32,000 nucleotides of DNA from an uncultured archaeon (GCA_964586355.1 CAZPGO010000005.1:1-32000), one strand, 5' to 3'; shown: positions 1 through 27,769, counted from the first letter of the stretch. Notes: generated by a model not told the origin, from the letters alone. Made by a program: numbers and translations.

Positions 1-255
1 GTAGATTGTATGATTGGTTACATGTGGGATGCTGAAAACAATAAATGTGTTGATATTATCCAAGATCCAGAATCAGAAGACCAAACATTTTGTGAATCAG
101 AAGGATATGTAACAGCAGATGGTTATCCTTATGCTTATAAATGTGTGTCAAATAATCAAAACTATATGGTTTGTTATGAAGACTCACAAACACTTGGGAA
201 TACAGAATATACATTTGTTTCAAATAGCTCTCTTAAAGATCAAATTTGCCCATAA
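1..255 (+). CDS. C-terminal fragment (84 codons) of a Cys-rich, probably extracellular protein whose start lies upstream of the window
   Basis: Frame +1 is open from base 1 (V-D-C precede the first Met at 10) and ends at TAA 253-255. There are six Cys in 84 aa, with an EGF-like spacing (CMIGYMWDAENNKC). It lies 39 nt upstream of, and on the same strand as, the next secreted-protein gene. Confidence 0.5.
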   Translation, partial: VDCMIGYMWDAENNKCVDIIQDPESEDQTFCESEGYVTADGYPYAYKCVSNNQNYMVCYEDSQTLGNTEYTFVSNSSLKDQICP

Positions 256-294: not shown

Positions 295-3237
295 ATGAAA
301 TCAAATAAAAAATTTATCTTAGGAATAATTTTAATAATGATGGTTGTGTTTAATATTACAAACCTTTATGCAGATGATGGAATCTCAAAAGCAAAAGAGA
401 CCATGTCAATGCTAGAAAGTGGAGTAAGCTTTCTTGGTGGCACAATAGGAAAACTAGTTGGTGCTAATCCGGTTTTACATGGTGTTATTGGTGGTGTTCT
501 TTCTGGGTTTAATACCTACTCCAAACTTAATGAAACCATAAAAATGGAACTACCAGCAGATAGAGTAAATATATCTGGAGATACTGATGATTTTTATGGT
601 GGTTCAGATGTTTTAATGATTGACATTGGTGAAAATGTTGTTCTTACAGATCAAAATGTTTTAGATGTTGATTTTATAGTTCCTAGAGCAATATCTACAT
701 TTGCAGATAATACTAAAAATCCAATTATGAGACTTGGAGAAAGAACAGAAAAAGTAAATGTTTTAGATACTAATAGAGAGAGAGTAGTTGGTCAAAAAAG
801 ATCACTATTATTTGAAGATCCAAATAATACTATTGAAAATGCTTATGAATATAGAACACTATTAATTGAATACAAGGAAGCAAAATTTAACAAACAACCA
901 GTAGATGTAAAAATAAAATTTAAAGATATAAGTAGCAGTAAATGGACTGCATTTTTTACTTCTGGAGTAGACTATTTAAAAGATGCTATAGTAAATGAAA
1001 TAGATTCTCTTAAAAAAGAATTATTTGATCATAGAGAACCAAAAGAATCTCCAAAAAATGTTCAAAAATTTAATTTAATATTTAATTCTAGAGTTCCAGA
1101 TGGTAATGATACTATAAATCCTGAGATCTTTGATTGTGCTTCTGAAGATGGAACAATCTTAGGAACTACAGGTAACCCTGCTTTGCCAAAAGTTGCACTT
1201 GATTGGCAATTTTCTGATCAAAAAGAAATAACTGCTATTAATGGTACGAAATTAAATAAACTAAATTGGTGTGATGTAAAAGATATAGATACAATAAACA
1301 CACCAACAAATGATGGCATTTATTGTGATTCTACTCAGTTTGCTATAGAAGCATTATATAAGATAAACGAAATAAATACTTTTGTTGCAAATAATTCTGA
1401 TGGCTTTATCTGTCCACAAACCTTTGAAACTCAACAACTTGTTTCTAAAACAAATAATGTTGGTCTAACTTATTTAGATGCAAAGATAGATGGTAGGAAA
1501 TTAATTGTAACTTACACATTAGAAGGACAATATAATAAACCAGACTCAATGTTAAATACTGAATCTTTACTAGATGCTGTTTTAACAGTTTCAGAAATAG
1601 ATGAGATAACAGAACTTGGAACAGAGATCTCACAAACTACAGAAAATGTTTCTGTTTCACATTTGGTAAATAGTAAAACAACAATAACTAAAGAGATTAT
1701 GTTAACAGGAACTTTAGAAAGTTCAAGATTAAAGGTTAATGTTATTTTAGATAATTTCAATGATACTTTTGTAGATTATGAAACAGGGGATAACGTCTTA
1801 GATAATGAAATAGAAATATTAGTTAGTCAAGACACCAGTGCATGTACCTTAGAAAAAACATCCATTAATCTTGATGGATATGCTTATGGTCTTTCTAGCT
1901 ATGTTTCTGAAATAAAAGATAGAGAGTTAGTACAGTTTAGATCATACTTAATGCAGGATGGGTATACTCAAGACTTTAGAGAAGATTTTGATAAAATATA
2001 TAGAAAAGAGTTTTTAGTTGCTCCTAAATTTTATAGTGATGTTGTCTTAGAATATATGACTCCTTTATACAAATATTTTTTAGACTCAGAAAAATTCATT
2101 TTTAAAACAAAGGTAGGAGATGTAGAAAGAGATGGTCTTCCAGGACCTGGTAAATATGCTGTTGATATAGTAATACATTATGATAATTCTTGGAAATTGT
2201 TTGACGAATCTGGAAACATAACTGGAAAAATAGAAATAATATTTGATAAAATTTCAGCACCAGAAATTGATATGCCAGTTTATTATATGCCAATTAATGG
2301 TGTTGTTGGAATAAATACTCCTAACTCTAGACAGGGGTATGGTGTTGATTATCTAGGTGATAAAATAAAAATAGATACCACTCAAATTGGTAGTTATTTT
2401 TTAGAGACAGAAGGATTTATTGGATCTACTCCAATTACTACAGTTAACATAAAAGAATTTGGTCCAAATGATTTTAAGATCATGAATACTGGAGAGAGTA
2501 GAGGAAAGATCTTAGATATTGAGAGAACAAAAAGCGGTATTTCTTTAAAATATATACCATCAAGACCAACACCAGTTGCTCTAAGAGTAACAAATGCTAA
2601 TAACGATGCCTTTGCTTTCTATAAATTATCTTTAGGAGCACCAGCTGAACAAGGAGGAATAATTGCAAACACAGGAGATGTTTTAACATACTGGACAGGT
2701 TTTGCAAACTGTAGAGATTTTGAAGGTGTGCCTCAGCTTGAAAGATATTTAGGAACTAGAGATATAGTCTCAACAGATTCAAGACTAGCACCAACCACAC
2801 AAAGTCAAGGCTTTAGTTATGGTGTTGAGTGGCCAAAGGAAGAGATTAATAGATATGGAAATATTTGGTTATATAGTATATTCTACACACCAACAAATTA
2901 TAAAACAGGTCAAGCAATGGATGGGATTAGTAGATTAGTAATAGACTCTAAGGATGATCAAGCATACTTTTACACATTAGCAGAAAGATCTTCAACTAAT
3001 CAATCAGCAACTCTTGATGGACCATCTGAATCTATTGAACTTAGAAATGCTTTAATAAATGATATAGAGTCTTTAAAAGATATCTATAACTTAGTTTCAG
3101 AAAAAAAAGCATGTGTTTCACCAAGTGCAAGTAGATTATCTGTTTATTATAATCCTAAATCTATTTCTGATGACTTAACAAATATAATTATTGAAAATAA
3201 ACTAGATAGTGATACAGAAGCCTGTATTAAAAACTAG
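295..3237 (+). CDS. Large secreted protein (980 aa): N-terminal signal peptide plus the conserved ~720-aa C-terminal module shared with the two giant proteins
   Basis: ATG at 295 and an uninterrupted 2.9-kb ORF in an AT-rich background. The N-terminus MKSNKKFILGIILIMMVVFNITNLYA looks like a signal peptide. Motifs ALPKVALDW (1180-1206), YCDSTQ (1321-1338), FRSYLMQDGY (from 1936), YYMPINGVVG, LTYWTGF and SIFYTP match equivalents in the 2484- and 2218-aa proteins. Confidence 0.85.
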   Translation: MKSNKKFILGIILIMMVVFNITNLYADDGISKAKETMSMLESGVSFLGGTIGKLVGANPVLHGVIGGVLSGFNTYSKLNETIKMELPADRVNISGDTDDFYGGSDVLMIDIGENVVLTDQNVLDVDFIVPRAISTFADNTKNPIMRLGERTEKVNVLDTNRERVVGQKRSLLFEDPNNTIENAYEYRTLLIEYKEAKFNKQPVDVKIKFKDISSSKWTAFFTSGVDYLKDAIVNEIDSLKKELFDHREPKESPKNVQKFNLIFNSRVPDGNDTINPEIFDCASEDGTILGTTGNPALPKVALDWQFSDQKEITAINGTKLNKLNWCDVKDIDTINTPTNDGIYCDSTQFAIEALYKINEINTFVANNSDGFICPQTFETQQLVSKTNNVGLTYLDAKIDGRKLIVTYTLEGQYNKPDSMLNTESLLDAVLTVSEIDEITELGTEISQTTENVSVSHLVNSKTTITKEIMLTGTLESSRLKVNVILDNFNDTFVDYETGDNVLDNEIEILVSQDTSACTLEKTSINLDGYAYGLSSYVSEIKDRELVQFRSYLMQDGYTQDFREDFDKIYRKEFLVAPKFYSDVVLEYMTPLYKYFLDSEKFIFKTKVGDVERDGLPGPGKYAVDIVIHYDNSWKLFDESGNITGKIEIIFDKISAPEIDMPVYYMPINGVVGINTPNSRQGYGVDYLGDKIKIDTTQIGSYFLETEGFIGSTPITTVNIKEFGPNDFKIMNTGESRGKILDIERTKSGISLKYIPSRPTPVALRVTNANNDAFAFYKLSLGAPAEQGGIIANTGDVLTYWTGFANCRDFEGVPQLERYLGTRDIVSTDSRLAPTTQSQGFSYGVEWPKEEINRYGNIWLYSIFYTPTNYKTGQAMDGISRLVIDSKDDQAYFYTLAERSSTNQSATLDGPSESIELRNALINDIESLKDIYNLVSEKKACVSPSASRLSVYYNPKSISDDLTNIIIENKLDSDTEACIKN

Positions 3238-3341: not shown

Positions 3342-6300
3342 ATGGCAGGCTTAACTTTTTCAGAAAAATATCAAAATTTTTTAGATAAAATAAATAACAG
3401 AATACCAATAAAATCTATTACAAAACCATTAGATAAAAAAAATCCACTAACTTCTTTGTTTTTATTTTTTTTACTAGTTGTAATTATTTTATTTTTAATA
3501 TTTAATCCTTTTTCATTTAAAGAAAAAGCAGACTATAATGAAGTAGTAATAAAGCTTGCTGATGATACTGGAAATATTCTAGAGGATTTTTCTTTTGTAA
3601 TTAAAGATGTTTTAGAAAATAGAGATCTAGAATTACAAACAGATTCTACTGGAAAAACAATAGTTACATTAGATACAAAAAAAGCATATGATTTCTTTTT
3701 AGAAAAAGTAGGATATAAAAGAAAAGTGTTGTCAATTGATCCTAACCAATTAGAACACAAAATAACACTTGAAGTTTATGAACTTCCTAGTACCAGTTCC
3801 AAAACTTTAATGCTTTTAGATAGTCAAACAAAAGAGCTTATTAAAGAAAATATGTCTCTTACCATTACTTGTGAAAATACAAATGAAGTAATAAATCCTA
3901 CAGCTTCACAAGCAGAGAATGGGCAAATAACTGTTGAAGTTCCAGCAAATTGTGGAAGAATTGTTGCAACTGCAGCATCAAGCACATACTTTGCACAAAA
4001 TATTTTAGTTTCAGAAAACCAAAATCAATTATTACTTAATAAAATTAATGATCAAATAACTGTTGGTAGTGGAGAAGCAAAGATCTTTGTTAAAAGTGGA
4101 ACAAATATTTTAGATGGAATAGAGGTAAGAATATTTAAAGAAGAAGATCCCATAAACCCAGTATCCACAAAAGAAACTCCTTTTGGTGCTGTTTATTTTA
4201 AAGATCTTGAAGTTGGAGAATATATAGTCTCAATTAATGATATAAGAGGAAATTATCAATCAACAGATCAGAGAATAACTATAGAAAAAGATAAATTAAC
4301 AGAAGCTGTTGTACAAGTTTTAGCAACAGGTAATAATGATAATCCAAATCTTGGAGATGAAATTGATAGTAACATAGTTACAAAAGAAATAATAGTAATT
4401 GTAAAAGATCTTTTAACCTCTTCAGAAATTATAGATCTAGAAGAAGAAGTTATTGTAAAGATCTTAGAAGATGGTAATCTTACAAAAGATGTTAGAGCAT
4501 ATGCTCCTGGTGGAGTGAGTTTTAATATTGAGGAAAATAAAAGTTACACTATTGTTGTTACTGCTAAAAAATATATTAATACTTCTAGAGTTATTTCTCC
4601 TAATGTTAATGAATATAATATTTTTTTAGAACCAATAACAGAAAGTAATGTCTCAAATATAAATATTGTTGCAAGAGATGAAGATGATCTTTTTGTCTCA
4701 AGAGCAACACTTTTAGTTTATGATGCTAATACAGGATTTATTGATGCTAGATTTGACCCAATCTTAACAGATCTTAATGGCTCTGCAACATTTAGAGATG
4801 TTCCAAAAGGAAACTATTTTATAAAACTAAGAAAATCTGTTGTGGATGGATCTTCAGAAAACTTTAATCACTTGCCACCAACAGACACAAATAGATCTGT
4901 AAATGTTGTTATTGGTAATGGTACTATAAATATTAATATAAAAAACAACTACACAGATCCTGTGGCAGATGCACAAATAACAATCTATAACTCTGATGGC
5001 ACCATAATTGGTTCTGATACTGCTAGTGCTACTGGAACTTATTCAAGAGAGTTAAAAGCAGATAAAATTGTTTATCTAAAAATAAGTAAAGAAGGATATT
5101 TAGATTATTATACTAATTTATTACCAATAATAAAAAACCAAACAACATCCAAAGAAATCATGCTTTATAGATCACAAGAAAACACTTTACCAATAATTGA
5201 TTATCTAGGTGTTTATGATCTTGCAAGCGATAGTTTAGTAGACTCACTTACACAAAACAAACAATATAATTTTAAATTTAGGGTGGTTTCTCCAAATAAC
5301 GCAAGTAATGTTAATTTTGGATTAAATTTTATTGTTGGTGGTGCGGAAAATGTTAATGATGATTTTGTGTTTATTAGATCAGTTACACAAAATCTTGGAC
5401 AAGTAACTTACTACGAATCCGAAAATGGATCCCCACTTCCACAAGGCTCTCCTGCAAAGTATGTTAAGGTTAATTATCAATCTATGCCTAATGGTGTTTA
5501 TGAAGTAACTATTCCTATGCAAGTATCTTCTGCTAATAGAGGAGATGCTGTTCCAATGTTTTACTTTGGATATTCTTTAGAGGACACTACTTTTAGAGAG
5601 CAGGAGATTTATTATATTGATGCAGAGCAACTTTGTGATGATAGTTTTTGTATCTCTGGACAGATACTTGATCTTTCTGAAAATATATCTGAAGATCTAA
5701 CTTCTTCTTTAAATGTTTCTACTATGGTTAATAATAACTATAGATTAGAGTACACCATAACAAATGCAGAAAACAACACCTATTCTCAAGCAAGATTTAG
5801 TATAAAAAATACAGAAAGTAGTTCTGATGATCTTGAGATAATGGCTCAAGCAATTGACATAAAAAGATATTCTTTATCAGGATTGATTAATCAAACAAGA
5901 GGAGAACAATCCTCTCCAAGACATAAGATTCCAGATGATGCTGATTATTTATCTATCCCTCAAATAAATGTTTATGATTCTCAGAATATAGATCTTAATA
6001 TTACTCCAATATCAATAGGTACAACAAAATTAAATCATAGAATATTAGCTGATCAAGCAATTGTTTATGATAAGCCAATAACTTTTGGGGTAAGTAATCA
6101 ATATCAATTTAATATTTCTTATGAGCCTTTAAATATTGTTCCAAACACCCCCTTTGTTCTAACTGTTTCTACAAGAGATACAGAAGGAAATCCTGTTGTT
6201 GATGGTATTGTTAATATTTATCAAAAAATAGGAAATAACACTAACACCATAACATCTGGAACCTATAGAACAAACCAAGAAGGAATGGTTCAAATAAATA

Positions 6301-9300
6301 TGCCTTCATTATATGTTAATGAAAAAATAATAATAGAAGTTCAAAAAGCTATGTATTATGCAACACCTGTAGAGATTGTTGTTTCTGAAGATGTTGTTGA
6401 AGCCAGAAAAAATAATACCTTAATAACTTTAGAAAACCCTTTAGAGATTAATATTCATAAAACAGAACTTGAAGGAGAGATTGAAAAAATAACTTTAAAA
6501 AACAAAACAGAATTTGATCTTGTTTTAAAATCTTTTTTAGATACAGATCTTTCTTTTAGTAATTCTTCATTTGTTAATCTTTCTCAAACTCTAAAACATC
6601 TTAATTCACAAGTAACAAATAATTCTTTTGTAATACCAGCAAATGGAGAAAAAGAATTAAATATAAGAGCAAGTCCATTTTCAAATGCCATTATAGATCT
6701 TTTTGAACCTGTTGAGGTTGTTGGTTCAATCTCTGCAAGAGTATCAAAAGTTGGTTCAAGTTCTAATTATAATTTTGAAATACCAATAAATGTTAAATTA
6801 TCTGTTGGAGAAGGTGTTGATGTTGATGATTGTTTAATAATTCAGGGAGCTCCTGAAACTTGGGAGAGTATAATTACTGGAAATGGTCAACAAGAAATTA
6901 CTTTTACACTCCTTAACAACTGTGTTGCTAAAGGAAATGATGAACAACACATCTCCTTAAAGAACATTAGAGCAAAGATGTCTCAGGAAGGAGATAGGTA
7001 TGGTGCTTATACTTTAAGGATAGAAGATAAAAGCATAACTTTGTCTGAAGGATCTTATCAAACAATAATAACTGGTGTTGAACCAAGAAAAGAATATAGT
7101 GTGACTTTAAGATATAATTCTTATGGTGCTAATTTTGCAGACATAAAATCAAACATTTATATTAATGCTCAAGTAGAAACAAACAACGGCTTAAGTTATG
7201 TAAATAAAGCTAAAGAACTTGCATTAAAAACAGATATTTCTGTTTTAAATATTGCTGATTGTATTGAGTTTTTTGATGATGGTAAAAAAATAAATAATCA
7301 ATTAATTATTCCTTCAGAAAAAATAATAGACGATATGGGTGATCCAAAAACACTAATCATAAAAAACAATTGTTCTGATAAGGCGAGATTTGAGGTTTTC
7401 TTTTGTGGAGAAAATAAAGAGTATGCGGGGTGTCAAGGTTTAAATTATACAAATATGAGTGGATCTTATCAAAACAAAGTTTCATTTAATATTGGTGAAA
7501 CCTCTCAAGAAGTTGGAATTGTCAAACCTTCTGTTCCTGGTGGTTATGTTATTTTAGCAAAAATAAAACCATTAAGTGTTCAAGGTCTTCCAATATCTGG
7601 TGCTACTGTTGAAAAGAAATTAAAGATTAATGTTCAGCATTTTTTATATATGCAAGATCCGTTTATTGAAGTTTCTAGATATGATGATCAAGTTTATAGA
7701 AGCCCAACTGTTAATTTACTAAATAAAGATATAGATGATAGTGCTTGGGATTATGCCACCACATTAGCAGATGATGGTTTTAGTAATTATATGTCTAATC
7801 TTTTTCCGTATTTTAATTCAAAATATGATAATATTAAATTTGTTACTTATGATAGAACAACTTTTACTAATGATGCCTATAAAAGATTTACAAATGATTG
7901 GGTTTTTATAGTTTCTCCTGCAACTGCTGCTATTGATAGATTATTATCTACTTTTAGTAATAATTTTACTGAAAAATTAACAAATCAAACACCATTTATA
8001 TATACAGATCTTTTAAATATTTCAGAAAACCAAGAGAAAACAAAAACAATTTCTCTTGATTCAAGTGATGCTGAAATAGCTTTTATTTCTATATGGGATA
8101 TTCAAGCAATGAGATATAAAAAGATATATAATATTTCAAAAGAAATTAAAGGCAAATTAATAAAAGACAGAGTGTTTTCAGAAGTTTTAGATTTGTGTAC
8201 TGGTTCTAATTTAGTTTTAGGAAATGCTGATGTTTCATATGTTTCTGATCCTAGAAATTGTAGTAATTTAAGATTAGAAGGAAATTTAGTAGATGGTTAT
8301 ATTTCAAAAATTAATTGTGATGGTGGTTGGAATTTTGGTAGAAAACAAATAAAAGTTACATATAATAATTATGTTGAATGTAGATATAATGAAACCATTT
8401 GGCCAGAACAAGCAGGTAAAAAACCAATACAGTTTACAGTTCCAGAAGAGAGTGAAATCTATGAAAGATTAGAAAATGGAGATCAAATATATAAAGAAAT
8501 AGAATTCTATCCAACCTTAGATGATTCATTAGAAGAAATAGATCCTGCTTTTGTTGGTGCAGAGGACATTGGTAAATTTAGATTTGCTATTTATGCTTAT
8601 GAAAAAGAACCAAAAATAACAACAGATCAAGAAATAGTTAAATGTATGACCGATACTGGAAAATTAGGAGACACCGGTCCAGGAATGGTGCCAAAGATAG
8701 CACTGGATTGGGCTTGGAGTTTTGATGATTTAAATAAATGTGCAAACACTTATTGTGATGCAACACAATTGTCTCAAGAGATATTAAATAGAATAAAAAA
8801 AGCAGAAGATGTTTTAAATAATAATAGAGCAAATATTTCCTGTCCTAAATCTACTCAACAATTATCAGATGAGTTGCTAGATGGCACCTATAGTGTTAAT
8901 GCTACACCTCAAGCTTATGAGGTAGAGCTACCAGTAAACAAGATTGGTATTAATGAAGTAAATATAGGTCAAAGAGATGGTCTTTTAGCAATAAGAGCAT
9001 CTGTTCAAAATAGAACTGCTTTATCTTTATCCGGTAATCTTTCAATAAATTTAGGCGATCAAACACTTTCAAAAATTGAGCTGCTTGGTTGTTTTTCTGG
9101 AACTAATTTGATTTCATGTCAAGGTGTAGAACCAGAATGGCATGTGTTTGATATTGATCAACCAGGAACAAATATTGTTCCTGTAACAATAACGCCTGTT
9201 GGGGATGATGATACTACTGAAGTTATATTTATTTATGGAACAGAAGATGCTGTGTTAGAAGGAAGCCATCCTCTTAATATTTCTTTTGAAGTCTCTCCAA

Positions 9301-10796
9301 GAGAAGGAGTTAATGTTTTAGAGTTTGTTAATGGAGTGCAAAACACTTTTAATAGCAATTTAGATTTATCCATTCAAGAATATGTTCCAAATAACGTTTG
9401 TCAAATACCAGCAACATCAGCAAATATAGCTGGAATTGATTTTATAGATTATTGGTTTAATGAATCAGTTTATGGTTCTATTGTACAATCTAATTGGAAT
9501 CAAGAGGATGTTCAATTACTTAAAAACACATTAACTTTTGATGCTTATTTAATGACAGACAATTATAATCAAAGTTTTAAAGATGCATTTGATAGAGCAT
9601 ATGGAGGAAAAGCATCAAAGGATCAAGGAATTGGTGTTAGTGAGTTTGCATTTTTAGCAAATCCTGGTTCTCTATATACTGATGATTATTTGTCTCCTTT
9701 GTTTAAAGATAATTTAGAGTTTATATTAAGATATTCTACAGACACCTCAGGAGTTAATATTTCTACTCCAGGATTATATAGAGTAAGAATAGATTTGTTC
9801 TTTAACAACTCTGAATGGAAAATGAAAAATGTTACTGGGGCTGTAGATCTTAATGCAACAGTAAGCTTTGAATATCTAAGAGGGCCTGATCATCAAAGTG
9901 TGTTTTATAGATTGCCATTTAATGGATTTACTGGTCTTAATTCATCAGGGTATGATAGACAGAACTATGGTCTTTCTTATGTTGGTGATGAGATACTTAT
10001 TACTGATGTGGCTGGTTTAAATATTTTAACAAAACAAGATAATGGCTCTAATCCTTTAAGATATATTTTTGTTACAAGAGAAACAGATTTTTATAAAACA
10101 AATAGTGATGTTGAGAGTAGAGGTAATGTTCTAGCAATCTATAGAGATCAAATAAACTCTAATAACTTTAATATGGTGTTTTCACCTAGTGTTGCTACAC
10201 CTGTATTAATGAATGTTAGAAAAGACATTGTTAGACCATTTAGTGCTTATTATCAATTAATTGATAAAACAGATAACTATGATCAACCAGTATATGGTCA
10301 AAACAATTTATTGTTTTGGACAGGGTTTGGAGATCACACAGATTTTTCAGGAGATACTACTCAAGCAAGATTTGTTGCTTTTTCAGATAGAATGTCTAGA
10401 TTAGATGAACCTGCAAGTAGTAGTTATGCTGTTGATTGGGATAATGTTTCTAGAAGAGGACAAGTAAATCTAAGAACAATAATTTACACACCATATACTA
10501 GAAACAATCAACCAAAAAATTACACATTAATTAGCAAATCTACTCAAGATCCTTCTGTTAAGTTTATTAAAAATCTAGAAGATTTTTCAACAAGTGTTTC
10601 TTTACCTGATACTCAAGAAACTACCATTAATAGCATAAGATCTGTATTTGAAAATATAGAAAATGGAAATATCTGTGTAACCAATTCTGAGGATGGTCTA
10701 AGATCTGAGTATTATTGGAACCCTCAAAAAATATATCCAGAAGATAGTATTTATACTGGTAACTTTGATGGTTTTGATTTAGGGTTTATTAATTAA
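3342..10796 (+). CDS. Giant membrane-anchored surface protein (2484 aa): short N-terminal tail, one TM helix, multiple beta-sandwich (carboxypeptidase-regulatory-like/Ig-like) repeats, conserved C-terminal module
   Basis: A 7.4-kb uninterrupted ORF. The hydrophobic helix LTSLFLFFLLVVIILFLIFNPF is at ~3447-3512. There are repeated units of the type 'V.V.D..G..I..A.V.......TD..G...F..L..G.Y.L.....GY'. The C-terminal module starts at ~8574 (MVPKIALDW 8685-8711, YCDATQ 8751-8768, FDAYLMTDNY from 9537, LLFWTGF, TIIYTP). A TATA-like box is at 3311-3318 and a T-rich tract follows the stop. Confidence 0.9.
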   Translation: MAGLTFSEKYQNFLDKINNRIPIKSITKPLDKKNPLTSLFLFFLLVVIILFLIFNPFSFKEKADYNEVVIKLADDTGNILEDFSFVIKDVLENRDLELQTDSTGKTIVTLDTKKAYDFFLEKVGYKRKVLSIDPNQLEHKITLEVYELPSTSSKTLMLLDSQTKELIKENMSLTITCENTNEVINPTASQAENGQITVEVPANCGRIVATAASSTYFAQNILVSENQNQLLLNKINDQITVGSGEAKIFVKSGTNILDGIEVRIFKEEDPINPVSTKETPFGAVYFKDLEVGEYIVSINDIRGNYQSTDQRITIEKDKLTEAVVQVLATGNNDNPNLGDEIDSNIVTKEIIVIVKDLLTSSEIIDLEEEVIVKILEDGNLTKDVRAYAPGGVSFNIEENKSYTIVVTAKKYINTSRVISPNVNEYNIFLEPITESNVSNINIVARDEDDLFVSRATLLVYDANTGFIDARFDPILTDLNGSATFRDVPKGNYFIKLRKSVVDGSSENFNHLPPTDTNRSVNVVIGNGTININIKNNYTDPVADAQITIYNSDGTIIGSDTASATGTYSRELKADKIVYLKISKEGYLDYYTNLLPIIKNQTTSKEIMLYRSQENTLPIIDYLGVYDLASDSLVDSLTQNKQYNFKFRVVSPNNASNVNFGLNFIVGGAENVNDDFVFIRSVTQNLGQVTYYESENGSPLPQGSPAKYVKVNYQSMPNGVYEVTIPMQVSSANRGDAVPMFYFGYSLEDTTFREQEIYYIDAEQLCDDSFCISGQILDLSENISEDLTSSLNVSTMVNNNYRLEYTITNAENNTYSQARFSIKNTESSSDDLEIMAQAIDIKRYSLSGLINQTRGEQSSPRHKIPDDADYLSIPQINVYDSQNIDLNITPISIGTTKLNHRILADQAIVYDKPITFGVSNQYQFNISYEPLNIVPNTPFVLTVSTRDTEGNPVVDGIVNIYQKIGNNTNTITSGTYRTNQEGMVQINMPSLYVNEKIIIEVQKAMYYATPVEIVVSEDVVEARKNNTLITLENPLEINIHKTELEGEIEKITLKNKTEFDLVLKSFLDTDLSFSNSSFVNLSQTLKHLNSQVTNNSFVIPANGEKELNIRASPFSNAIIDLFEPVEVVGSISARVSKVGSSSNYNFEIPINVKLSVGEGVDVDDCLIIQGAPETWESIITGNGQQEITFTLLNNCVAKGNDEQHISLKNIRAKMSQEGDRYGAYTLRIEDKSITLSEGSYQTIITGVEPRKEYSVTLRYNSYGANFADIKSNIYINAQVETNNGLSYVNKAKELALKTDISVLNIADCIEFFDDGKKINNQLIIPSEKIIDDMGDPKTLIIKNNCSDKARFEVFFCGENKEYAGCQGLNYTNMSGSYQNKVSFNIGETSQEVGIVKPSVPGGYVILAKIKPLSVQGLPISGATVEKKLKINVQHFLYMQDPFIEVSRYDDQVYRSPTVNLLNKDIDDSAWDYATTLADDGFSNYMSNLFPYFNSKYDNIKFVTYDRTTFTNDAYKRFTNDWVFIVSPATAAIDRLLSTFSNNFTEKLTNQTPFIYTDLLNISENQEKTKTISLDSSDAEIAFISIWDIQAMRYKKIYNISKEIKGKLIKDRVFSEVLDLCTGSNLVLGNADVSYVSDPRNCSNLRLEGNLVDGYISKINCDGGWNFGRKQIKVTYNNYVECRYNETIWPEQAGKKPIQFTVPEESEIYERLENGDQIYKEIEFYPTLDDSLEEIDPAFVGAEDIGKFRFAIYAYEKEPKITTDQEIVKCMTDTGKLGDTGPGMVPKIALDWAWSFDDLNKCANTYCDATQLSQEILNRIKKAEDVLNNNRANISCPKSTQQLSDELLDGTYSVNATPQAYEVELPVNKIGINEVNIGQRDGLLAIRASVQNRTALSLSGNLSINLGDQTLSKIELLGCFSGTNLISCQGVEPEWHVFDIDQPGTNIVPVTITPVGDDDTTEVIFIYGTEDAVLEGSHPLNISFEVSPREGVNVLEFVNGVQNTFNSNLDLSIQEYVPNNVCQIPATSANIAGIDFIDYWFNESVYGSIVQSNWNQEDVQLLKNTLTFDAYLMTDNYNQSFKDAFDRAYGGKASKDQGIGVSEFAFLANPGSLYTDDYLSPLFKDNLEFILRYSTDTSGVNISTPGLYRVRIDLFFNNSEWKMKNVTGAVDLNATVSFEYLRGPDHQSVFYRLPFNGFTGLNSSGYDRQNYGLSYVGDEILITDVAGLNILTKQDNGSNPLRYIFVTRETDFYKTNSDVESRGNVLAIYRDQINSNNFNMVFSPSVATPVLMNVRKDIVRPFSAYYQLIDKTDNYDQPVYGQNNLLFWTGFGDHTDFSGDTTQARFVAFSDRMSRLDEPASSSYAVDWDNVSRRGQVNLRTIIYTPYTRNNQPKNYTLISKSTQDPSVKFIKNLEDFSTSVSLPDTQETTINSIRSVFENIENGNICVTNSEDGLRSEYYWNPQKIYPEDSIYTGNFDGFDLGFIN

Positions 10797-10884: not shown

Positions 10885-12696
10885 ATGTTAAACTTAAAAA
10901 ATCTGATGATCATCAGTATTTTATATCTTTTAATTGGCTTTTCTTTTGCAAATGGTGTGGATGATGTTCTTACTATTAATGGATTAAATTTAAATGTTAA
11001 TTCAAATAATTTAAATGAGATATATGCTTTAGATAACTCTCCAGCAACCTGTACAATTACAGAAGTTTTAGAGTCTGGTATGGTTGTTTGTGATCTTAAT
11101 TCTAGTGTTGATTATTTTGTTGTTACTTCTTCAAATATAAATATTATTAATAATCAAGGATCTCCAGTAAATAATATTAAACTAAAAATAGTTAACGACA
11201 CTACTTTCTTATTTTTAGAAAATAGATTTTTATCTAAAGAGGGTCTAAAAATTAATATTAAAGAATTAGAAGTTGCAAGTAATAAAAAACTAACATTTAA
11301 AAGATCTGTTTCTAAAGTTGCAACAACAGTTTTAACAGAGAATATTTCTGTTATAAAAGTAATTAGCAATATTGAAAAAATAAAATTAAATTATAATTCC
11401 AAATTTGTTATAGATTTTTCTAATAGATATCAAAAAAGTTTGTTTTCAGTAATTAGAAATCATTTTTATTTAACCTCACAAAATCAAGTAGGATATTTTT
11501 TTGACGAGCTTAATGCTGCTAGAGAAAATAAATTCTATTTAGGTTCTGACTCTTTAGATTTTTCTAAGACACATATAGAGATTTCTAATGATGCTAATTT
11601 TTTTATAACTTTAAACAATTCTTCTTCTGTTGAGCAATTAGATTCTTCATTTTTGTTATATTCTTTAAATAATAATAATGATGTTACTCCTTGGCAATAC
11701 CCTACACATAATGACTGCCCAAAAACTCTGGTTACTATGATTTTGGAAGACGAGGAAGATGAGGGGCCTGAAGAGTATCCAGATTATTGTTCTAATGAGC
11801 AACAAGATGAGGATGAAGAAGGAATAGATTGTGGGGGTTCTTGTGAACCTTGTGATTTAGAATCAAGTTTATCTGAATCAGATTTTGAAGTTGAATTCCA
11901 GAGTTGTTGTGGGGAGGATGTTTTTTCTTGTTGTGATGATTCAGAAACGGAAAAAAAATATTTGTCACTAGAATATTCTTTGATTGGCACTATCCTATTC
12001 AAGTCTGTAGAAAATAATGGTGTTTTAGAAATATTTGCTTATCCTCAAATTCTATCAGAAGGTTATAAAGAGGGTGATTCTACTTATAATTTAGAAAACT
12101 CAGAAAAAACAAGCACCATTTTTTATTTTGAAGATTATTTAGGATCTAACTATCCATTAACACTAAACAATTTTTCTAGTAATATTGTTTATTTTTCTAC
12201 TTGTGATGATCAATTGACTAAATTAGAAAATACTGATTATAATGTTTGTTTATTTTATAATTATTCAAATAATAATAATTTGCCATTAACTGTTGACGAG
12301 ATATCTACTCTTGTTCCATCAAAAATTAGAAACTTTTCAAGAAACACTTGTAATGCTGTTAATGAATCTAATAGCAATTATAGCACATACTTAAATATGT
12401 CAAATGAAAAAAAAGCAAATCCTGTTTTATTTGGAAATATTAGTAAGATCTTTCCAAAGGAGCTTATAACTCCAAATATTAGTAATCAAAAGTTACTTGT
12501 TTATGATAATATTCAAAATAATTTTTTATTTAATTCAAATCTTTTAAAAAAAATAAATAATACTCAATTTTATTTATATAATAATTTGATTGATAGTAAT
12601 TATATTGGAAACAAAAGTCTTTATGCATTTGATTCTAATCTAAGTTATGAAAACAATTTGATTAGATTAGTCTATCCTTATAAACTTTATAAATAA
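10885..12696 (+). CDS. Secreted Asn-rich protein (603 aa) with a central acidic, Cys-rich segment
   Basis: ATG at 10885 is preceded by GGAG about 10 nt upstream. The N-terminus is signal-peptide-like (MLNLKNLMIISILYLLIGFSFANG). The acidic/Cys cluster DCPK...EDEEDEGPEEYPDYC...DEDEEGIDCGGSCEPCD...SCCGEDVFSCCDD is at 11713-11940. There are many N-x-S/T sequons. No family could be assigned. Confidence 0.8.
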   Translation: MLNLKNLMIISILYLLIGFSFANGVDDVLTINGLNLNVNSNNLNEIYALDNSPATCTITEVLESGMVVCDLNSSVDYFVVTSSNINIINNQGSPVNNIKLKIVNDTTFLFLENRFLSKEGLKINIKELEVASNKKLTFKRSVSKVATTVLTENISVIKVISNIEKIKLNYNSKFVIDFSNRYQKSLFSVIRNHFYLTSQNQVGYFFDELNAARENKFYLGSDSLDFSKTHIEISNDANFFITLNNSSSVEQLDSSFLLYSLNNNNDVTPWQYPTHNDCPKTLVTMILEDEEDEGPEEYPDYCSNEQQDEDEEGIDCGGSCEPCDLESSLSESDFEVEFQSCCGEDVFSCCDDSETEKKYLSLEYSLIGTILFKSVENNGVLEIFAYPQILSEGYKEGDSTYNLENSEKTSTIFYFEDYLGSNYPLTLNNFSSNIVYFSTCDDQLTKLENTDYNVCLFYNYSNNNNLPLTVDEISTLVPSKIRNFSRNTCNAVNESNSNYSTYLNMSNEKKANPVLFGNISKIFPKELITPNISNQKLLVYDNIQNNFLFNSNLLKKINNTQFYLYNNLIDSNYIGNKSLYAFDSNLSYENNLIRLVYPYKLYK

Positions 12697-12706
12697 CTGA
12701 AAATTT

Positions 12707-14845
12707 ATGAACTATAAAAAAATAAAAATAGCGACAATAATTTTTTTAATACTCTTTAGTGCAAATATATTTGCATGTACTCTGACTATGACCTCTGGAT
12801 TGTCACCCTATTTTATTTCCCGAGAAGATCATAATGATTCTAGTAGACATTTAGCAGAAATTACTTTACCTAGCTGGACCAATCATGATATTGTTTTAAC
12901 CAGAACTCCAGATTGTCAAGGAAAAACTATTGTTTTAGTTATTGATGATAATAAAACCATAAACATTACTGGAAATAAAGATAATTATAAAATAACAGGA
13001 ATGGATGTAGTGGAATTTCAAAATAATTCTGGAATTGTTTTTAATATTAATAATAATGATGATGAAGTAGAATTAACAACAATAGATATTAATGCAGATA
13101 TACAAACAAAACCAAATACAATAGCAAAACTAGAAGTTAATGAAGGGGAAAGAGAATTTGATCGTGATGATAGTTATAGAAAAGCACATGGAATAAAAGT
13201 TATTTCTAAAAATTTATTTGTAGAACAAGACTCAAATTTAGCAATAAATATTTCTTGTGATGATCCAGAAGAAGGTCCTTCAAGTACAAGTAATCCAGTT
13301 TCTGGTGTTGCTGGTGGTCCTGCTTTATTAGATTTTAATTCTATAATTAATTATGGTTCTTTAGGTGTGACTCTAAAAGCAGGTTCTGGAGGAAAAGGAA
13401 CCACAGGAAAAACAAAGCATCCAAGAAAATCAGGAGGAGATGGTGGTCTTGGTGGAGATGTTAATTTTTCTGTATTTTTTATAAACACAAAAGATTCTGC
13501 AAAATTTGATCTTAATTTAAAATCAGGAAATGGTGGTGCTGGTGGTTCAGGTGCTAGTGAAGGTGGGGGCCCGAGATGTGCAGGTACTCCTAAAAATGGT
13601 GGTGCTGGTGTTGATGCTGGTTTAGTTAATTTAAATGTTTCTAATCTAGCTTTTGATCAGAGCTCTCAAGTTTTTATTTCCCTAGAATCAGGTAATGGAG
13701 GTAAAGGAGGAAACTCTGGTCACAATCATTGTAGTGGTGATAATGCTAATGGGGGTAATGGTGGAAATGCAGGTAATATAATAGTAAATAATTTTGATGA
13801 TTTAAAAACCAGTGGGGATTTTACACTCTCTCTAATTTCGGGATCTGGGGGTAATGGAGGATCTAAAACCAGAGATGGTATTTATGGTTTTGGGGGTAAT
13901 GGAGGAAATATTTATGATCTAAATATTTCTAATTTTATAAATAATAGTGAAAATACAAAAATTACTTTTTTATCAGGTAAAAAAGGAAAAAATCCTAATT
14001 CGATGTCTCTGGCTTTTGATGGTCTTGCAGGTGGTATAGGGGATGTTAAAATTAATTATTTAGAAAATAGCAAAAGAGGGCTAGAGATCATAAAACAAGT
14101 AGATCAAACAACCTTAGATATTATTTCTGAGTTTTCTTGTGATCCTGAGAACCCCACAAATTTTGTAGAAACAGGAGATATTTATATAAATTATATTTCT
14201 AGTGGTAGTTATTTGCCAAGGTCTTTAAAGACCATAACTGCATATCCAATAGATAACACAAAAATAGAAATAGATGCTTGTTATCTTAAATCATCAGGAT
14301 TAAAAAAACTAGAATACCAAACAGGACAATTGATTTTAAACTCTGCAAATAAAGAGCATATTTTAAATGATTTTGATTATGAAAAATCAAGAATATTAAT
14401 ATTTACTAAAGAAGATAATGATTGCCCAATTTGTGATGCCCTAGAGTTAACAAATCTTAATAGGGTTGATGAAACCTATAAGATCTATTCTAATAATGCT
14501 GGAACAATACAGGCAGGAGATCTTAAAATATATTATCTTAAAGAAGATCAAGAGATATTTAAGCCAAATTATTTAGGTGATCAAGAAGAGTATATAGTTT
14601 ACACAAATAAAGCAGATATTCCGTCTCAAAACAGCTCTCAATTCTCTGAAGCTGGTCTTTTTGAATATGTTTTATCTAAAGAGAATTTATTTTCTCCGAG
14701 ATATAATAATGTATTAAGTGAAATTACTGACTCAAAGGCATATTGCCCGGGTCAACAATACAAGATTAAATTCACTATTGCCTTAGATGATGGTACTTCA
14801 AAAACAATTAATATGCCCTTTATTCCAATATATGGTTTTGAATAA
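12707..14845 (+). CDS. Putative lipoprotein/secreted protein (712 aa) with a periodic glycine-rich (GNGG/GGxGG) repeat region, probably a solenoid or beta-helix
   Basis: ATG lies 10 nt after the upstream stop. The N-terminus MNYKKIKIATIIFLILFSANIFAC has a lipobox-like Cys. The central ~260 aa have about 5-6 units of ~45-52 aa, each alternating a Gly-rich turn (SGNGGAGGSG, SGNGGKGGNSG, GGNGGNAGN, SGSGGNGGSK, GGNGGN) with a beta-strand-like pattern (V.L.V.N...). Confidence 0.85.
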   Translation: MNYKKIKIATIIFLILFSANIFACTLTMTSGLSPYFISREDHNDSSRHLAEITLPSWTNHDIVLTRTPDCQGKTIVLVIDDNKTINITGNKDNYKITGMDVVEFQNNSGIVFNINNNDDEVELTTIDINADIQTKPNTIAKLEVNEGEREFDRDDSYRKAHGIKVISKNLFVEQDSNLAINISCDDPEEGPSSTSNPVSGVAGGPALLDFNSIINYGSLGVTLKAGSGGKGTTGKTKHPRKSGGDGGLGGDVNFSVFFINTKDSAKFDLNLKSGNGGAGGSGASEGGGPRCAGTPKNGGAGVDAGLVNLNVSNLAFDQSSQVFISLESGNGGKGGNSGHNHCSGDNANGGNGGNAGNIIVNNFDDLKTSGDFTLSLISGSGGNGGSKTRDGIYGFGGNGGNIYDLNISNFINNSENTKITFLSGKKGKNPNSMSLAFDGLAGGIGDVKINYLENSKRGLEIIKQVDQTTLDIISEFSCDPENPTNFVETGDIYINYISSGSYLPRSLKTITAYPIDNTKIEIDACYLKSSGLKKLEYQTGQLILNSANKEHILNDFDYEKSRILIFTKEDNDCPICDALELTNLNRVDETYKIYSNNAGTIQAGDLKIYYLKEDQEIFKPNYLGDQEEYIVYTNKADIPSQNSSQFSEAGLFEYVLSKENLFSPRYNNVLSEITDSKAYCPGQQYKIKFTIALDDGTSKTINMPFIPIYGFE
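13290..14070 (+). repeat. In-frame coding repeat region (glycine-rich ~45-52-aa periodic units) inside the 712-aa ORF
   Basis: The recurrent pattern 'GG.GG.G.[VI].[FL].[VI]..[FL]......[FI].[LI].L.SG.GG.GG' is read directly from the translation (aa ~195-455). The units are degenerate at the nucleotide level. Confidence 0.7.
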
Positions 14846-21528: not shown

Positions 21529-21888
21529 ATGGATTTAATTATTTTAAATTTTTTTACAGATTTTAGTTTTATTTTAAAAATTTTCTTTTTATTATTTATA
21601 ATTACATTTGTAAGAACAAGAATCACTCATAATTTTTTAGCACTTTCAATAATAACTATTTTAGCAATATTTTTGATATTTTTCTATTGGCCAGTCTTTG
21701 GAACAGCATATTTGTTTTATATATTATTAACAATTGGTGTCTCTGGTGTTTTAGTAGATATCTTCTTTGTAACTATGAATCATGGTCCCAAAGATATGTT
21801 AGATAAGATGCCTGGAAAAAAACAAGCAGAGATGCAACAACAAAAAATGCAACAACAACAAAAACAACAACAAATGAGAAATAGATAA
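21529..21888 (+). CDS. Small polytopic membrane protein (119 aa, ~3 TM) with a Gln/Lys-rich C-terminal tail
   Basis: ATG lies 6 nt after the giant ORF's stop. There are three long hydrophobic stretches. The tail KKQAEMQQQKMQQQQKQQQMRNR is encoded by CAA-rich sequence (~21817-21885). No family could be assigned. Confidence 0.65.
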   Translation: MDLIILNFFTDFSFILKIFFLLFIITFVRTRITHNFLALSIITILAIFLIFFYWPVFGTAYLFYILLTIGVSGVLVDIFFVTMNHGPKDMLDKMPGKKQAEMQQQKMQQQQKQQQMRNR

Positions 21889-22237: not shown

Positions 22238-22311
22238 GGATCTATGGTGTAGCCTGGATAGCATACAAGCTTGCGGAGCTTGCGACTTGGGTTCAAATCC
22301 CAATGGATCCA
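22238..22311 (+). tRNA. tRNA-Arg, anticodon GCG, no intron, CCA not encoded
   Basis: Hand-folded cloverleaf. Acceptor GGATCTA/TGGATCC with one G-U pair and discriminator A. D-loop AGCCTGGATA. Anticodon stem CAAGC/GCTTG with loop TT-GCG-GA. T-arm TTGGG-TTCAAAT-CCCAA. Confidence 0.85.
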
Positions 22312-27668: not shown

Positions 27669-27742
27669 GGGGCTGTAGTGTAGTCTGGTCATCACGAGAG
27701 CTTTGGGAGCTTTTAACCCCAGTTCAAATCTGGGCAGCCTCA
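27669..27742 (+). tRNA. tRNA-Pro, anticodon UGG, no intron, CCA not encoded
   Basis: Hand-folded cloverleaf. Acceptor GGGGCTG/CAGCCTC (G1-C72, one G-U pair) with discriminator A. D-loop AGTCTGGTCA. Anticodon stem AGAGC/GCTTT with loop TT-TGG-GA. T-arm CCCAG-TTCAAAT-CTGGG. Confidence 0.85.
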
Positions 27743-27769
27743 CTTTTTGTATATGGGTGATTTTTTGCA

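Follow-up and report, generated by a model that had tools for sequence, protein, structure and literature searches.

Three proteins encoded in a 32,000-nucleotide stretch of DNA from an uncultured archaeon (GCA_964586355.1, CAZPGO010000005.1:1-32000; hereafter the window) share a C-terminal module, a bona fide homologous domain of ~520–740 residues. It is carried by a family of giant surface proteins restricted to the DPANN phylum Candidatus Iainarchaeota. The most likely assignment, which we hold with about as much doubt as confidence, is that of the C-terminal globular domain of these giants, serving as a non-enzymatic terminal interaction domain of a fibre or envelope system.

Architecture of the locus

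The relevant features are given below with their nucleotide coordinates in the window and their strand.

295..3237, +: ORF1 (980 aa; ORF list), head-only, with a Sec-type signal peptide, a lineage-specific N-terminal domain and the module
295..375, +: N-terminal hydrophobic signal or anchor of ORF1, aa 1–27, with ...NLYA followed by DD (hydropathy)
1066..1419, +: N-lobe of module copy 1, aa 258–375 (conservation, dN/dS, AF2)
1420..1839, +: variable Ig-like β-sandwich insert of copy 1, aa ~376–515, flanked by C373 and C517 (AF2, Foldseek)
1840..3237, +: module core of copy 1, aa 516–980 (near-invariant columns, AF2, dN/dS)
3342..10796, +: ORF2, a giant of 2484 aa with an N-terminal transmembrane (TM) segment, an Ig-like/CarboxypepD_reg/SpaA stalk and the C-terminal module
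3435..3530, +: TM segment of ORF2, aa 32–63
8574..10796, +: module copy 2, ORF2 aa 1745–2484
10885..14845, +: ORF3 (603 aa, acidic, Cys-rich) and ORF4 (712 aa, GGNGG-type Gly-rich repeats)
14866..21522, +: ORF5, a giant of 2218 aa with a Lys-rich N-terminal tail, a TM segment, an Ig-like stalk and a short module
15328..15438, +: TM segment of ORF5, aa 155–191
19960..21522, +: module copy 3, ORF5 aa ~1699–2218, divergent and without the insert
21529..21888, +: ORF6 (119 aa), a small polytopic membrane protein directly after the last giant

ORF1 has at least 18 orthologues (39–100% identity), every one annotated as hypothetical, and a dN/dS of 0.113 against its L044 counterpart. Its signal would be cleaved after ...NLYA; a VYAD-type end of this segment is conserved in the A3 consensus. 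The N-terminal regions of ORF5 and ORF2 are homologous (1e-20), and the Lys-rich tail of ORF5, ~150 residues long, is presumed to be cytoplasmic.

Among the other genes of the cluster, ORF6 is a conserved companion of the arrays: tblastn and alignment place its relatives directly after the giants in L021, L027, L029, L034 (Ca. I. andersonii), L035 and L037. ORF3 (dN/dS 0.30) and ORF4 have signal-like N-termini, no matches in Pfam, NCBIfam or PHROGs, and orthologues only in L044, and they are probably secreted cluster genes limited to the close lineage. ORF3, ORF4 and ORF7 were also considered as conserved partners and set aside, none of the three having been found beyond the closest relative, which leaves ORF6 as the only conserved one.

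The module is a homologous domain

An initial annotation made from the sequence had proposed that the three C-terminal regions align motif by motif. Its nine motif and coordinate claims match the translations exactly, and the other motifs occur in the order described in ORF1 (295–3237), ORF2 (3342–10796) and ORF5 (14866–21522). Formal alignment by BLASTP with composition adjustment confirms the homology, with E=2e-41 and ~700 collinear residues for copies 1 and 2, E=7e-10 for copies 1 and 3, and E=3e-3 for copies 2 and 3. The ORF5 copy is the weakest; against a family profile made without ORF5 it scores a database-scaled E=1.2e-9.

The size range of 520–740 residues is likewise correct, copy 3 having ~520 residues as against 723–740 in copies 1 and 2. 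Copy 3 is shorter because it lacks a β-sandwich insert of ~140–170 residues, together with the two cysteines that bracket it. The start of the module near residue 258 of ORF1 also stands. A longer module would require similarity between the first 257 residues of ORF1 and the pre-module region of the giants, and none was found by BLASTP, while hhalign gave a probability of 1.6%.

Collinear motifs define the family. They run in the first half as C..G.TG..P...W / C / YCDxTQ / CP / [insert] / C / YLxxDGYSxDFxxDF / PGxYxV, and in the second as FYYxPxxGxxG..RxGYG / RG..L / SPSxxTPV / W.G / YxxxW / TIFYTP / CV / WNPK. Copies 1 and 2 carry the full set at their extreme C-terminus; in copy 3, which is without the insert, the distal motifs are degenerate. 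The Cys and Trp positions described as fixed are indeed so: across 115 family members eight Cys columns are 87–100% conserved and W800 (ORF1 numbering, as for all residues here) is invariant. Invariant polar residues are D345, Q348, D555, D564, R679, N731, R736, D808, D823 and N953.

Copy 1 divides into three segments. The N-lobe, whose motifs are 90–100% conserved in 115 sequences, is the most constrained (dN/dS 0.062) and contains C281, G..TG, PxxxLxW304, C326 and Y-C344-D-x-T-Q348, the last of which opens a long helix (module residues 89–113 in the AF2 model), followed by C373-P. The insert, with strands at module residues 119–254 of the model, is the least conserved part. The core (pLDDT mostly >90, dN/dS 0.09–0.10) carries YLMxDGYSxDFxxDFD, PGxYxV, FYYxPxxGxxG...RxGYG, RGxxL, SPSxxTPV, WxGxxxCxDF, YxxxW, TIFYTP, CV, WNPK and the terminal C977. 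Copy 2 (dN/dS 0.11–0.23) is missing the C806/C977 pair and has an additional Cys pair within the insert.

A phylum-specific family of ancient paralogues

The module is widespread rather than an oddity of one locus. An exhaustive profile search found it in 724 representative clusters, 465 of them at E<=1e-30. Most of these representatives are giants of 2300–2600 residues with the module at the extreme C-terminus, followed by a tail of 9 residues (median). The usual architecture is an N-terminal TM anchor, ~1450–1700 residues of Ig-like/CarboxypepD_reg/SpaA/MG-like repeats, and then the module. Of the 40 loci recovered, nearly all bear the label 'archaeon' or Candidatus Iainarchaeum, with Ca. 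I. andersonii among them. A viral or mobile origin was discarded, as no relative was found in IMG/VR and PHROGs v4 gives no match.

Metagenome-assembled genomes of Candidatus Iainarchaeota carry the giants in tandem arrays, with two or three module-bearing members per locus. In the tree, the paralogue clades are older than the species divergence and follow array position, and the two or three differentiated paralogues are ancient, with their gene order kept. The ORF1 module is sister to the clade-A modules, and copy 3 clusters with the divergent copy L015_1of3.

The depiction of the module as an ancient and selectively maintained domain agrees with the 724 clusters, the pre-speciation paralogue clades and a dN/dS of 0.06–0.23 across the modules, indicating purifying selection; these values are regional Nei–Gojobori estimates against one relative. 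Mean pairwise identity between orthologues is 0.39–0.42 for the module, 0.34–0.38 for the stalk, and lowest, 0.23–0.28, for the insert, so that module variability does not exceed that of the stalk. Neither the regional Nei–Gojobori estimates against one relative nor the orthologue identity profiles show positive selection or a hypervariable head.

Searches for sequence and fold relatives

The module had been described as not assignable to a known family, and this holds in Pfam-A, NCBIfam, PHROGs, the PDB sequences, and Foldseek against the PDB and BFVD. The curated collections (Pfam-A 2025, NCBIfam r20, PHROGs v4) return nothing for the three copies, and no curated family recurs among 47 members or four other giants. 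Phmmer and profile searches of the PDB sequences give nothing at E<=10.

For the structural comparison, a module-only AF2 model (pLDDT 89, pTM 0.83) superseded a first full-length model with a pLDDT of 63. Used as a whole-chain query against the PDB and BFVD, it yields only Ig-sandwich matches of 100–170 columns with a query-normalised TM of at most 0.13, and no fold relative of the module core. All of these matches fall in the insert, to the Sec63 Ig domain of Brr2, the CPE0147 repeat and the FXIII barrels. With the exception of this inserted Ig-like sandwich, the module has no detectable sequence relative in these collections and no fold relative in the PDB or BFVD, and it is a candidate new fold. 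No description of the family was found in the searchable literature, and its members are annotated only as 'hypothetical'.

Cysteine pairing and localization

The number of cysteines is even in 159 of 165 complete modules, and Cys pairs disappear jointly across the family. The even counts therefore point to disulfides, with no free or thioester Cys. The module is probably extracellular and held together by three to eight disulfides, with all cysteines apparently paired; likely pairs are C373–C517, around the insert, and C806–C977. The Lys-rich tails that precede the TM segment of the giants and the signal peptide of ORF1 also count in favour of an extracellular module, whose composition is acidic, Asn-rich and sequon-rich relative to the cytoplasmic aminoacyl-tRNA synthetase and ligase genes. 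Against the disulfide assignment, the hydrophobic segment of clade C is short (19–28 aa) and, if it is a single pass, would put the module on the cytoplasmic side.

The invariant Y-C-D-x-T-Q motif was also considered as the site of a thioester or catalytic Cys. We rejected this possibility in view of the even Cys counts (159/165), the lack of any conserved His, and the absence of a thioester-domain or protease fold.

Membrane topology and head-only genes

The initial annotation placed the module at the membrane-distal end of the protein as a functional head. This fits both giants of the window: ORF2 and ORF5 have a single N-terminal TM segment, an Ig-like stalk and, ~1700 residues downstream, the module. 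It does not extend to the whole family, where 58 of 97 giants (60%) have a second hydrophobic segment, head-only genes exist, and the module does not vary more than the stalk does.

This second segment is a Gly/Ala-rich hydrophobic hairpin whose spacing resembles GxxxG and which has a conserved turn (GPVG, GPWG or PGWGW) at its centre. It lies outside the module, its end a median of 141 residues upstream, suggesting that the module may adjoin a membrane rather than occupy a fibre tip. Its occurrence follows the paralogue: clade A has none, clade B has it, and clade C has the short segment. Most clade-B heads are tethered beside it. ORF1, ORF2 and ORF5 all lack the hairpin. A close relative of ORF2, P0019, has one; a frameshift hiding it in ORF2 was excluded by tblastn, which is collinear in one frame while the other frames are filled with stops.

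The head-only genes are ORF1, P0022 and P0039, the latter two starting with the hairpin. The ORF2 stalk (aa 4–1444) is 37% identical to a separate gene of 1448 residues in L001, and the next gene there, P0022, is a head. Stalk-only genes also lie upstream of the ORF1 orthologues, and their best matches are clade-A stalks (the top eight are all clade A). On these grounds, and given the sister position of its module to the clade-A modules, we infer that ORF1 is what remains of the head of a giant at the first array position, whose stalk and head came to be encoded by separate genes; in that case the head would need no covalent connection to the stalk in order to function.

Possible roles of the module

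According to the reading that we favour, the module would most likely end a cell-surface fibre or envelope system as a non-enzymatic interaction domain. A fast-changing ligand seems a less likely partner for it than a conserved one, such as an envelope component, a conserved glycan, or another head or paralogue, and the variable Ig insert may tune specificity.

It is possible, if on balance unlikely, that the module is the head of a host or prey adhesin, in line with the ligand or host binding put forward by the initial annotation. The module or its Ig insert would then bind a ligand on the host cell, and the stalk would project it away from the small DPANN cell for episymbiotic contact. The succession of anchor, long Ig stalk and terminal disulfide-bonded globule parallels that of invasin, intimin and other giant adhesins, the stalks give weak Big_1, Invasin_D3 and SpaA matches, and the insert is the most variable element. 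Giant surface proteins thought to mediate attachment are also used by other DPANN lineages (PMC6642349, PMC8204110). However, conservation of the head equals or exceeds that of the stalk, dN/dS comes close to 1 in none of its segments, and the paralogues are ancient and fixed in order, unlike the lineage-specific expansions typical of host-range arms races. The membrane hairpin beside most clade-B heads also argues against a projected adhesin, and an independent lifestyle has been proposed as possible for Ca. I. andersonii (PMC6349945).

A role in membrane insertion or cell–cell bridging seems doubtful. Here a Gly-zipper hairpin and the module would together insert into the partner's or the cell's own membrane (as a pore, in fusion or in docking), with the three paralogues and ORF6 forming one machine. 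The Gly/Ala-rich hairpin with its conserved turn ~140 residues before the module in 58 of 97 giants, its position at the start of the head genes P0022 and P0039, its variation between paralogue clades, and the conserved partner ORF6, a small membrane protein, are consistent with such a role; one family member also matches the Gly-zipper family C19orf12 (E=1e-3). Yet the giants of the window and the whole of clade A have no hairpin while their module remains under purifying selection, the comparison with the PDB and BFVD shows no resemblance in fold to fusogens or pore formers, and the hairpin may do no more than anchor the protein a second time in the membrane of its own cell. In its broadest form, equally doubtful, the new fold would be the working part of a surface machine, built from several paralogues and present throughout the phylum, for docking onto, or inserting into, the envelope of another cell. 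Clade A would supply a stalk-borne free head, clade B a hairpin-tethered head, clade C a third variant, and ORF6 a further part. If true, this would constitute a previously unrecognised archaeal apparatus for cell–cell contact or membrane insertion.

Slightly more doubtful still is an extracellular enzyme of new fold displayed on the stalk and degrading, for example, glycans or proteins on envelopes or polymers. The invariant Asp, Arg, Asn and Gln residues and many conserved aromatics recall carbohydrate-active proteins, and the polar residues might make up a novel type of active site; conservation is strong and uniform across the phylum, and large extracellular lytic enzymes occur in other DPANN lineages (PMC8204110). 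Nevertheless, a conserved set of His, Glu, Lys or Ser-His-Asp is lacking, the even counts leave no Cys free, the module matches no hydrolase or lyase in sequence or fold, and three differentiated paralogues per genome would be unusual for a single activity.

Finally, we consider it very improbable that the module is an export or assembly domain for secretion, folding or anchoring of the giant: its strictly C-terminal position (median tail 9 aa) and its conservation above that of the passenger-like stalk would suit such a role, but ORF1 and P0022-type proteins carry the module with no stalk to export, 520–740 residues with disulfides far exceed known sorting signals, and neither a PGF-CTERM-type or archaeosortase-type match in NCBIfam nor a β-barrel fold match was found.

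The Iainarchaeota (formerly Diapherotrites) are uncultured DPANN archaea for which both a free-living and a host-dependent lifestyle are considered (PMC6349945). In organisms whose genomes are known to be reduced, a locus of two to three tandem giants of more than 7 kb each is large. These giants keep the same order throughout the phylum, and the domain at their end has no relative in Pfam, NCBIfam, the PDB or BFVD. The definition of the family provides a phylum marker and a testable link between envelope architecture and lifestyle, and studies of structure and binding gain a concrete, soluble target in the 980-residue head-only ORF1. Should the module prove to do no more than cap an envelope fibre structurally, the family definition would still be useful and its general interest modest.

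Comparison with known systems

The giants resemble invasin, intimin and the giant Ig-repeat bacterial adhesins in having an N-terminal anchor, an Ig-like rod and a disulfide-containing C-terminal globule. Their stalks give weak matches to Big_1, Invasin_D3, SpaA and SdrD_B, mostly below the Pfam thresholds. Where those adhesins have an outer-membrane β-barrel, the giants are anchored by one archaeal TM helix preceded by a Lys-rich tail; their N-terminus gives no family match to an invasin-type barrel with a LysM or periplasmic domain. The head, at ~520–740 residues, also differs from invasin D5 and shows no similarity in sequence or fold to C-type-lectin-like or other heads.

A superficial resemblance links the Y-C-D-x-T-Q motif to the CGEQ of thioester proteins (A2M/complement and Gram-positive TIE adhesins). 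Faint matches to the macroglobulin domains MG3 and MG4, below the curated cut-offs, also occur in the stalks. The Cys/Gln spacing here is i/i+4 and not i/i+3, and Foldseek against the PDB and BFVD gives no thioester-domain (TED) match.

Like the SPEARE proteins of Nanohaloarchaeota (PMC6642349), these are membrane-anchored DPANN proteins of very large size, to which a small genome devotes a sizeable part and for which a role at the cell surface is presumed. SPEARE proteins contain serine protease, laminin-G adhesion, toxin-like and type III restriction-endonuclease domains and have a C-terminal TM segment and a conserved cytoplasmic part (PMC6642349), whereas the conserved part here is the C-terminal module, which is probably extracellular. 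None of the SPEARE domains occurs in Pfam scans of ORF1, ORF2, ORF5 and four other giants.

The Gly/Ala-rich stretch of the clade-B giants, P0022 and P0039 is similar to glycine-zipper two-helix hairpins (C19orf12-like, PF20721). The match to PF20721 is a single weak one (E=1e-3), and the stretch lies outside the module and is absent from the three proteins of the window.

Archaeal S-layer and stalked envelope proteins, such as SlaA/SlaB and tetrabrachion, are membrane-anchored, extended, probably glycosylated, lineage-conserved and encoded by adjacent genes. The giants are much longer than S-layer proteins and have an N-terminal anchor rather than a C-terminal TM segment or PGF-CTERM; Pfam and NCBIfam give no match to S-layer families or to a PGF-CTERM/archaeosortase signal, the C-terminus being the module. 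What the giants have in common with these envelope proteins is that they are extended, anchored, probably glycosylated surface proteins, lineage-conserved and from adjacent genes, here with an acidic, sequon-rich composition.

Homology of the three module copies

The surface-protein cluster lies in DNA of 26–31% G+C in which every large ORF is on the + strand.

Genes of the cluster
295–3237 (+): ORF1, 980 aa, module copy 1
3342–10796 (+): ORF2, 2484 aa, module copy 2
10885–12696 (+): ORF3, 603 aa
12707–14845 (+): ORF4, 712 aa
14866–21522 (+): ORF5, 2218 aa, module copy 3
21529–21888: ORF6

The motifs quoted for the three C-terminal modules in the initial annotation all translate exactly at their positions, and the similarity proposed there is significant in formal alignment. 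BLASTP with composition adjustment aligns copies 1 and 2 collinearly over ~700 aa (E = 2e-41), copies 1 and 3 at E = 7e-10, and copies 2 and 3 at E = 3e-3. As copy 3 is the weakest link, a family profile was built from which ORF5 and sequences close to it were left out. Against this independent profile ORF5 scores 53.7 bits (E = 1.2e-9, scaled to a database size of 1.84e9); the highest score among 200 shuffled controls is 3 bits. The match consists of three collinear segments and skips the insert, an Ig-like β-sandwich of copy 1 (nt 1420–1839, ORF1 residues ~376–515) that is missing from copy 3. The module limit set near ORF1 residue 258 holds up: in the region preceding the module, the giants (proteins with an N-terminal transmembrane segment, an Ig-like stalk and the module) contain nothing that matches ORF1 residues 1–257 by BLASTP or hhalign (probability 1.6%).

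Family, distribution and selection

Word-seeded searches returned close relatives only, none of them named. The profile search for homologues advised in the initial annotation was productive: among 1.84 billion representatives, exhaustive HMMER recovered 724 proteins with E ≤ 1e-3, of which 465 reach E ≤ 1e-30. Giants of at least 2000 aa make up 97 of the 170 sequences collected; in the family sequences the module starts at median residue 1711, and the C-terminus lies a median of 9 residues beyond its end. A scan of species-representative genomes gave 40 loci, nearly all from Iainarchaeota or unclassified archaeal MAGs; Ca. I. andersonii is represented among them by its single-cell genome. The nearest genomic relatives of the window are MAGs named 'archaeon' or Candidatus Iainarchaeum, which is placed in the phylum Candidatus Iainarchaeota, kingdom Nanobdellati (DPANN). 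With the module HMM run over the 40 loci, the usual arrangement is two or three tandem giants, each with a terminal module (2477, 2399 and 2481 aa in Ca. I. andersonii). Typical Iainarchaeota giant arrays also occur in JAFCCG010000009.1 ('Chloroflexi bacterium') and JAFCCH010000027.1 ('Thaumarchaeota archaeon'), from MAGs that share a source study with several Iainarchaeum bins; these labels probably reflect mis-binning or mislabelling rather than real presence outside the phylum.

Neighbour joining of 57 modules gives clades that track array position: clade A comprises first-in-array modules, clade B second-in-array modules, and clade C a shorter third type. This correspondence places the duplications before the diversification of the sampled lineages, which supports the earlier view of an ancient, selectively maintained domain. 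The modules form a genuine and ancient family of C-terminal domains that is confined to the phylum, evolves under purifying selection and belongs to a conserved surface-protein locus of several genes.

Nei–Gojobori dN/dS against L044, the closest relative's locus, is 0.113 for ORF1 (Cys/CDxTQ lobe 0.062, core 0.09–0.10, insert 0.159) and 0.178 for ORF2 (module 0.11–0.23, pre-module linker 0.34). The insert is the least constrained part of the ORF1 module and the most variable segment among orthologues. Across distant orthologues the module is slightly better conserved than the stalk (clade A, 0.42 vs 0.38; clade B, 0.39 vs 0.34). Neither the dN/dS comparison proposed in the initial annotation nor the orthologue identities give any sign of a hypervariable, arms-race head. 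We consider an adhesin reading of the head unlikely.

Absence of a known family or fold

Pfam-A, NCBIfam and PHROGs gave no match on the module for copies 1–3, for 47 family members searched singly or for four other giants; the stalks alone match CarboxypepD_reg, SpaA, Big_1 and MG-like models. PDB sequences gave no match to the module, even by profile at E ≤ 10. In these libraries the module is, as first claimed, not assignable to a known family. A first full-length structure model was poor (pLDDT 63); a model of the module only, based on 47 aligned sequences, has high confidence (mean pLDDT 89.0, pTM 0.83). The suggested Foldseek search with this model gave no match in the PDB at E ≤ 1e-3 and two in BFVD at that threshold, a 173-column sandwich and an alignment that is long but of low probability. 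Overall, the top matches are Ig-like sandwiches of 100–170 columns with query-normalised TM ≤ 0.13. Since the insert (module residues ~119–254) is a contiguous all-β segment of matching size in the model, the sandwich matches are tentatively assigned to it by size and all-β content. For the remaining ~500-residue core, no relative was detected in the PDB, BFVD or the sequence libraries. The module as a whole has no known relatives in them.

A second hydrophobic stretch and separate stalk and head genes

The N-terminal transmembrane segment is present in 94 of the 97 giants. A second, Gly/Ala-rich hydrophobic stretch occurs in 58 (60%). Its median length is 47.5 aa, the turn at its centre reads GPVG, GPWG or PGWGW, and the median distance from its end to the module is 141 aa. 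It looks like a glycine-zipper hairpin, and one family member weakly matches the C19orf12-like family.

Positions of the hairpin in family proteins
aa ~1450–1620: P0033–P0038, P0042, P0048, P0052, P0058, P0060, P0072, P0073
aa 21–71: P0022
aa 7–80: P0039
aa ~157–205: P0019

The hairpin is missing from clade A and present in 8 of 10 clade-B proteins; in clade C, 5 of 6 proteins carry instead one shorter segment, which, if a single pass, would conflict with a simple model of the module outside. ORF2 and ORF5 are without the hairpin; a frameshift was rejected as the cause in ORF2, where the absence is real. The fragment P0019 (86% identical) does carry it. The initial placement of the head at the membrane-distal end stands for ORF2, ORF5 and clade A, and fails for the hairpin-bearing majority of giants. 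A hairpin-linked membrane machine, which that majority might suggest and clade A would not, is improbable.

In locus L001, ORF2 residues 4–1444 align at 37% identity with the product of a 1448-aa gene, and the next gene, P0022, encodes the hairpin at its start and then the module. ORF1 orthologues are preceded by a stalk-only gene of 1541–1863 aa (L044, 5274–9899; L002, 4384–9975; L001, 5110–9960) that best matches residues ~5–1470 of clade-A giants, its top eight matches all being clade A. As the ORF1 module is also sister to clade A in the 57-module tree, ORF1 is best read as the head of a clade-A giant that became separated from its stalk and acquired a signal peptide of its own. The C-terminal tails of the stalk-only genes differ among relatives; window positions 1–252 (frame 1) encode the Cys-rich C-terminus of an ORF that begins upstream of the window.

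Conserved residues and probable disulfide pairing

Eight Cys columns are conserved at 87–100%. Trp800 (ORF1 numbering) is invariant in 115 family members, and D345, Q348, D555, R679, G683, D823 and C940 are among the residues conserved at 93% or more. Cys number is even (6, 8, 10, 12, 14 or 16) in 159 of 165 complete modules, the pattern expected from full disulfide pairing, which would leave no Cys free. Co-loss suggests the pairs C373–C517, bracketing the insert (both gone in copy 3), and C806–C977 (both gone in ORF2 and ORF5). The invariant Y-C-D-x-T-Q motif was considered as a thioester or catalytic site and rejected on the even Cys counts, and that the module is a new enzyme is improbable.

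The module is acidic, Asn-rich and sequon-rich. From this composition, the Cys pattern, the ORF1 signal peptide and the Lys-rich tails preceding the transmembrane segments of ORF2 and ORF5, we infer that it is extracellular and disulfide-bonded. The Lys/Glu-rich ORF5 tail is unusually long (~150 aa; aa 1–154, nt 14866–15327; only ~30 aa in ORF2) and may be a small cytoplasmic domain that only this paralogue has.

Other genes of the locus

ORF6 is a small polytopic membrane protein encoded immediately 3' of the last giant, both here and at six distant loci, one of them from Ca. I. andersonii.

ORF6 and downstream-gene counterparts
Window: 21529–21888
L021: 15529–16038
L027: 15407–15877
L029: 2728–3231
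L034: 15058–15444
L035: 17647–18123
L037: 8061–8429

These proteins (119–169 aa) share the motifs F.D.N..LKIF and W..FG..YLLY.LL..G.S..I.DFFFV; ORF6 matches nothing in Pfam or PHROGs and probably functions together with the giants. ORF4 starts with a signal-like sequence and has Gly-rich repeats at regular intervals (..SGNGG.GG..), suggesting a β-helix-like secreted protein. In ORF3 the central part is acidic and dense in Cys (CGGSCEPC, CC..CC). ORF3 and ORF4 match no family, and both are conserved in L044 only.

The genes 3' of the cluster encode HisRS, AlaRS, a secreted PLD-like protein, ProRS with a ProRS-C_1 domain and an ATP-dependent DNA ligase, together with two tRNAs.

Features 3' of the cluster
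22238–22311: tRNA-Arg(GCG), directly after the cluster
24771–26522: AlaRS, 583 aa
26527–27609: PLD-like protein
27669–27743: tRNA-Pro(UGG), before ORF 27770–28378
27724–28041 (−): 105-aa ORF

The AlaRS has the tRNA-synt_2c core and tRNA_SAD and, as the C-terminal C-Ala region is absent, is a compact form of the enzyme. In the PLD-like protein, two PLDc_2 (HKD) domains accompany a hydrophobic N-terminal signal; Cys makes up 3% of its residues, and sequons are dense. It is probably a phospholipase or nuclease that is secreted or located at the cell surface. The 105-aa ORF overlaps tRNA-Pro and the + strand ORF 27770–28378 and is probably spurious.

Interpretation

The finding is well supported and should be of use to DPANN and structural biologists; as to role, we infer only that the module is non-enzymatic and an interaction domain, for binding or assembly. 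The head would more probably have a conserved partner than a variable host ligand, since it is not more variable than the stalk, its paralogues are old and ordered, and it would also work as a separate polypeptide. We found no description of the head domain, the A/B/C array or the hairpin variant in the searchable literature. Giant Ig-rich surface proteins are themselves a known kind, published DPANN examples being the SPEARE proteins (PMC6642349) and large lytic-transglycosylase proteins (PMC8204110).
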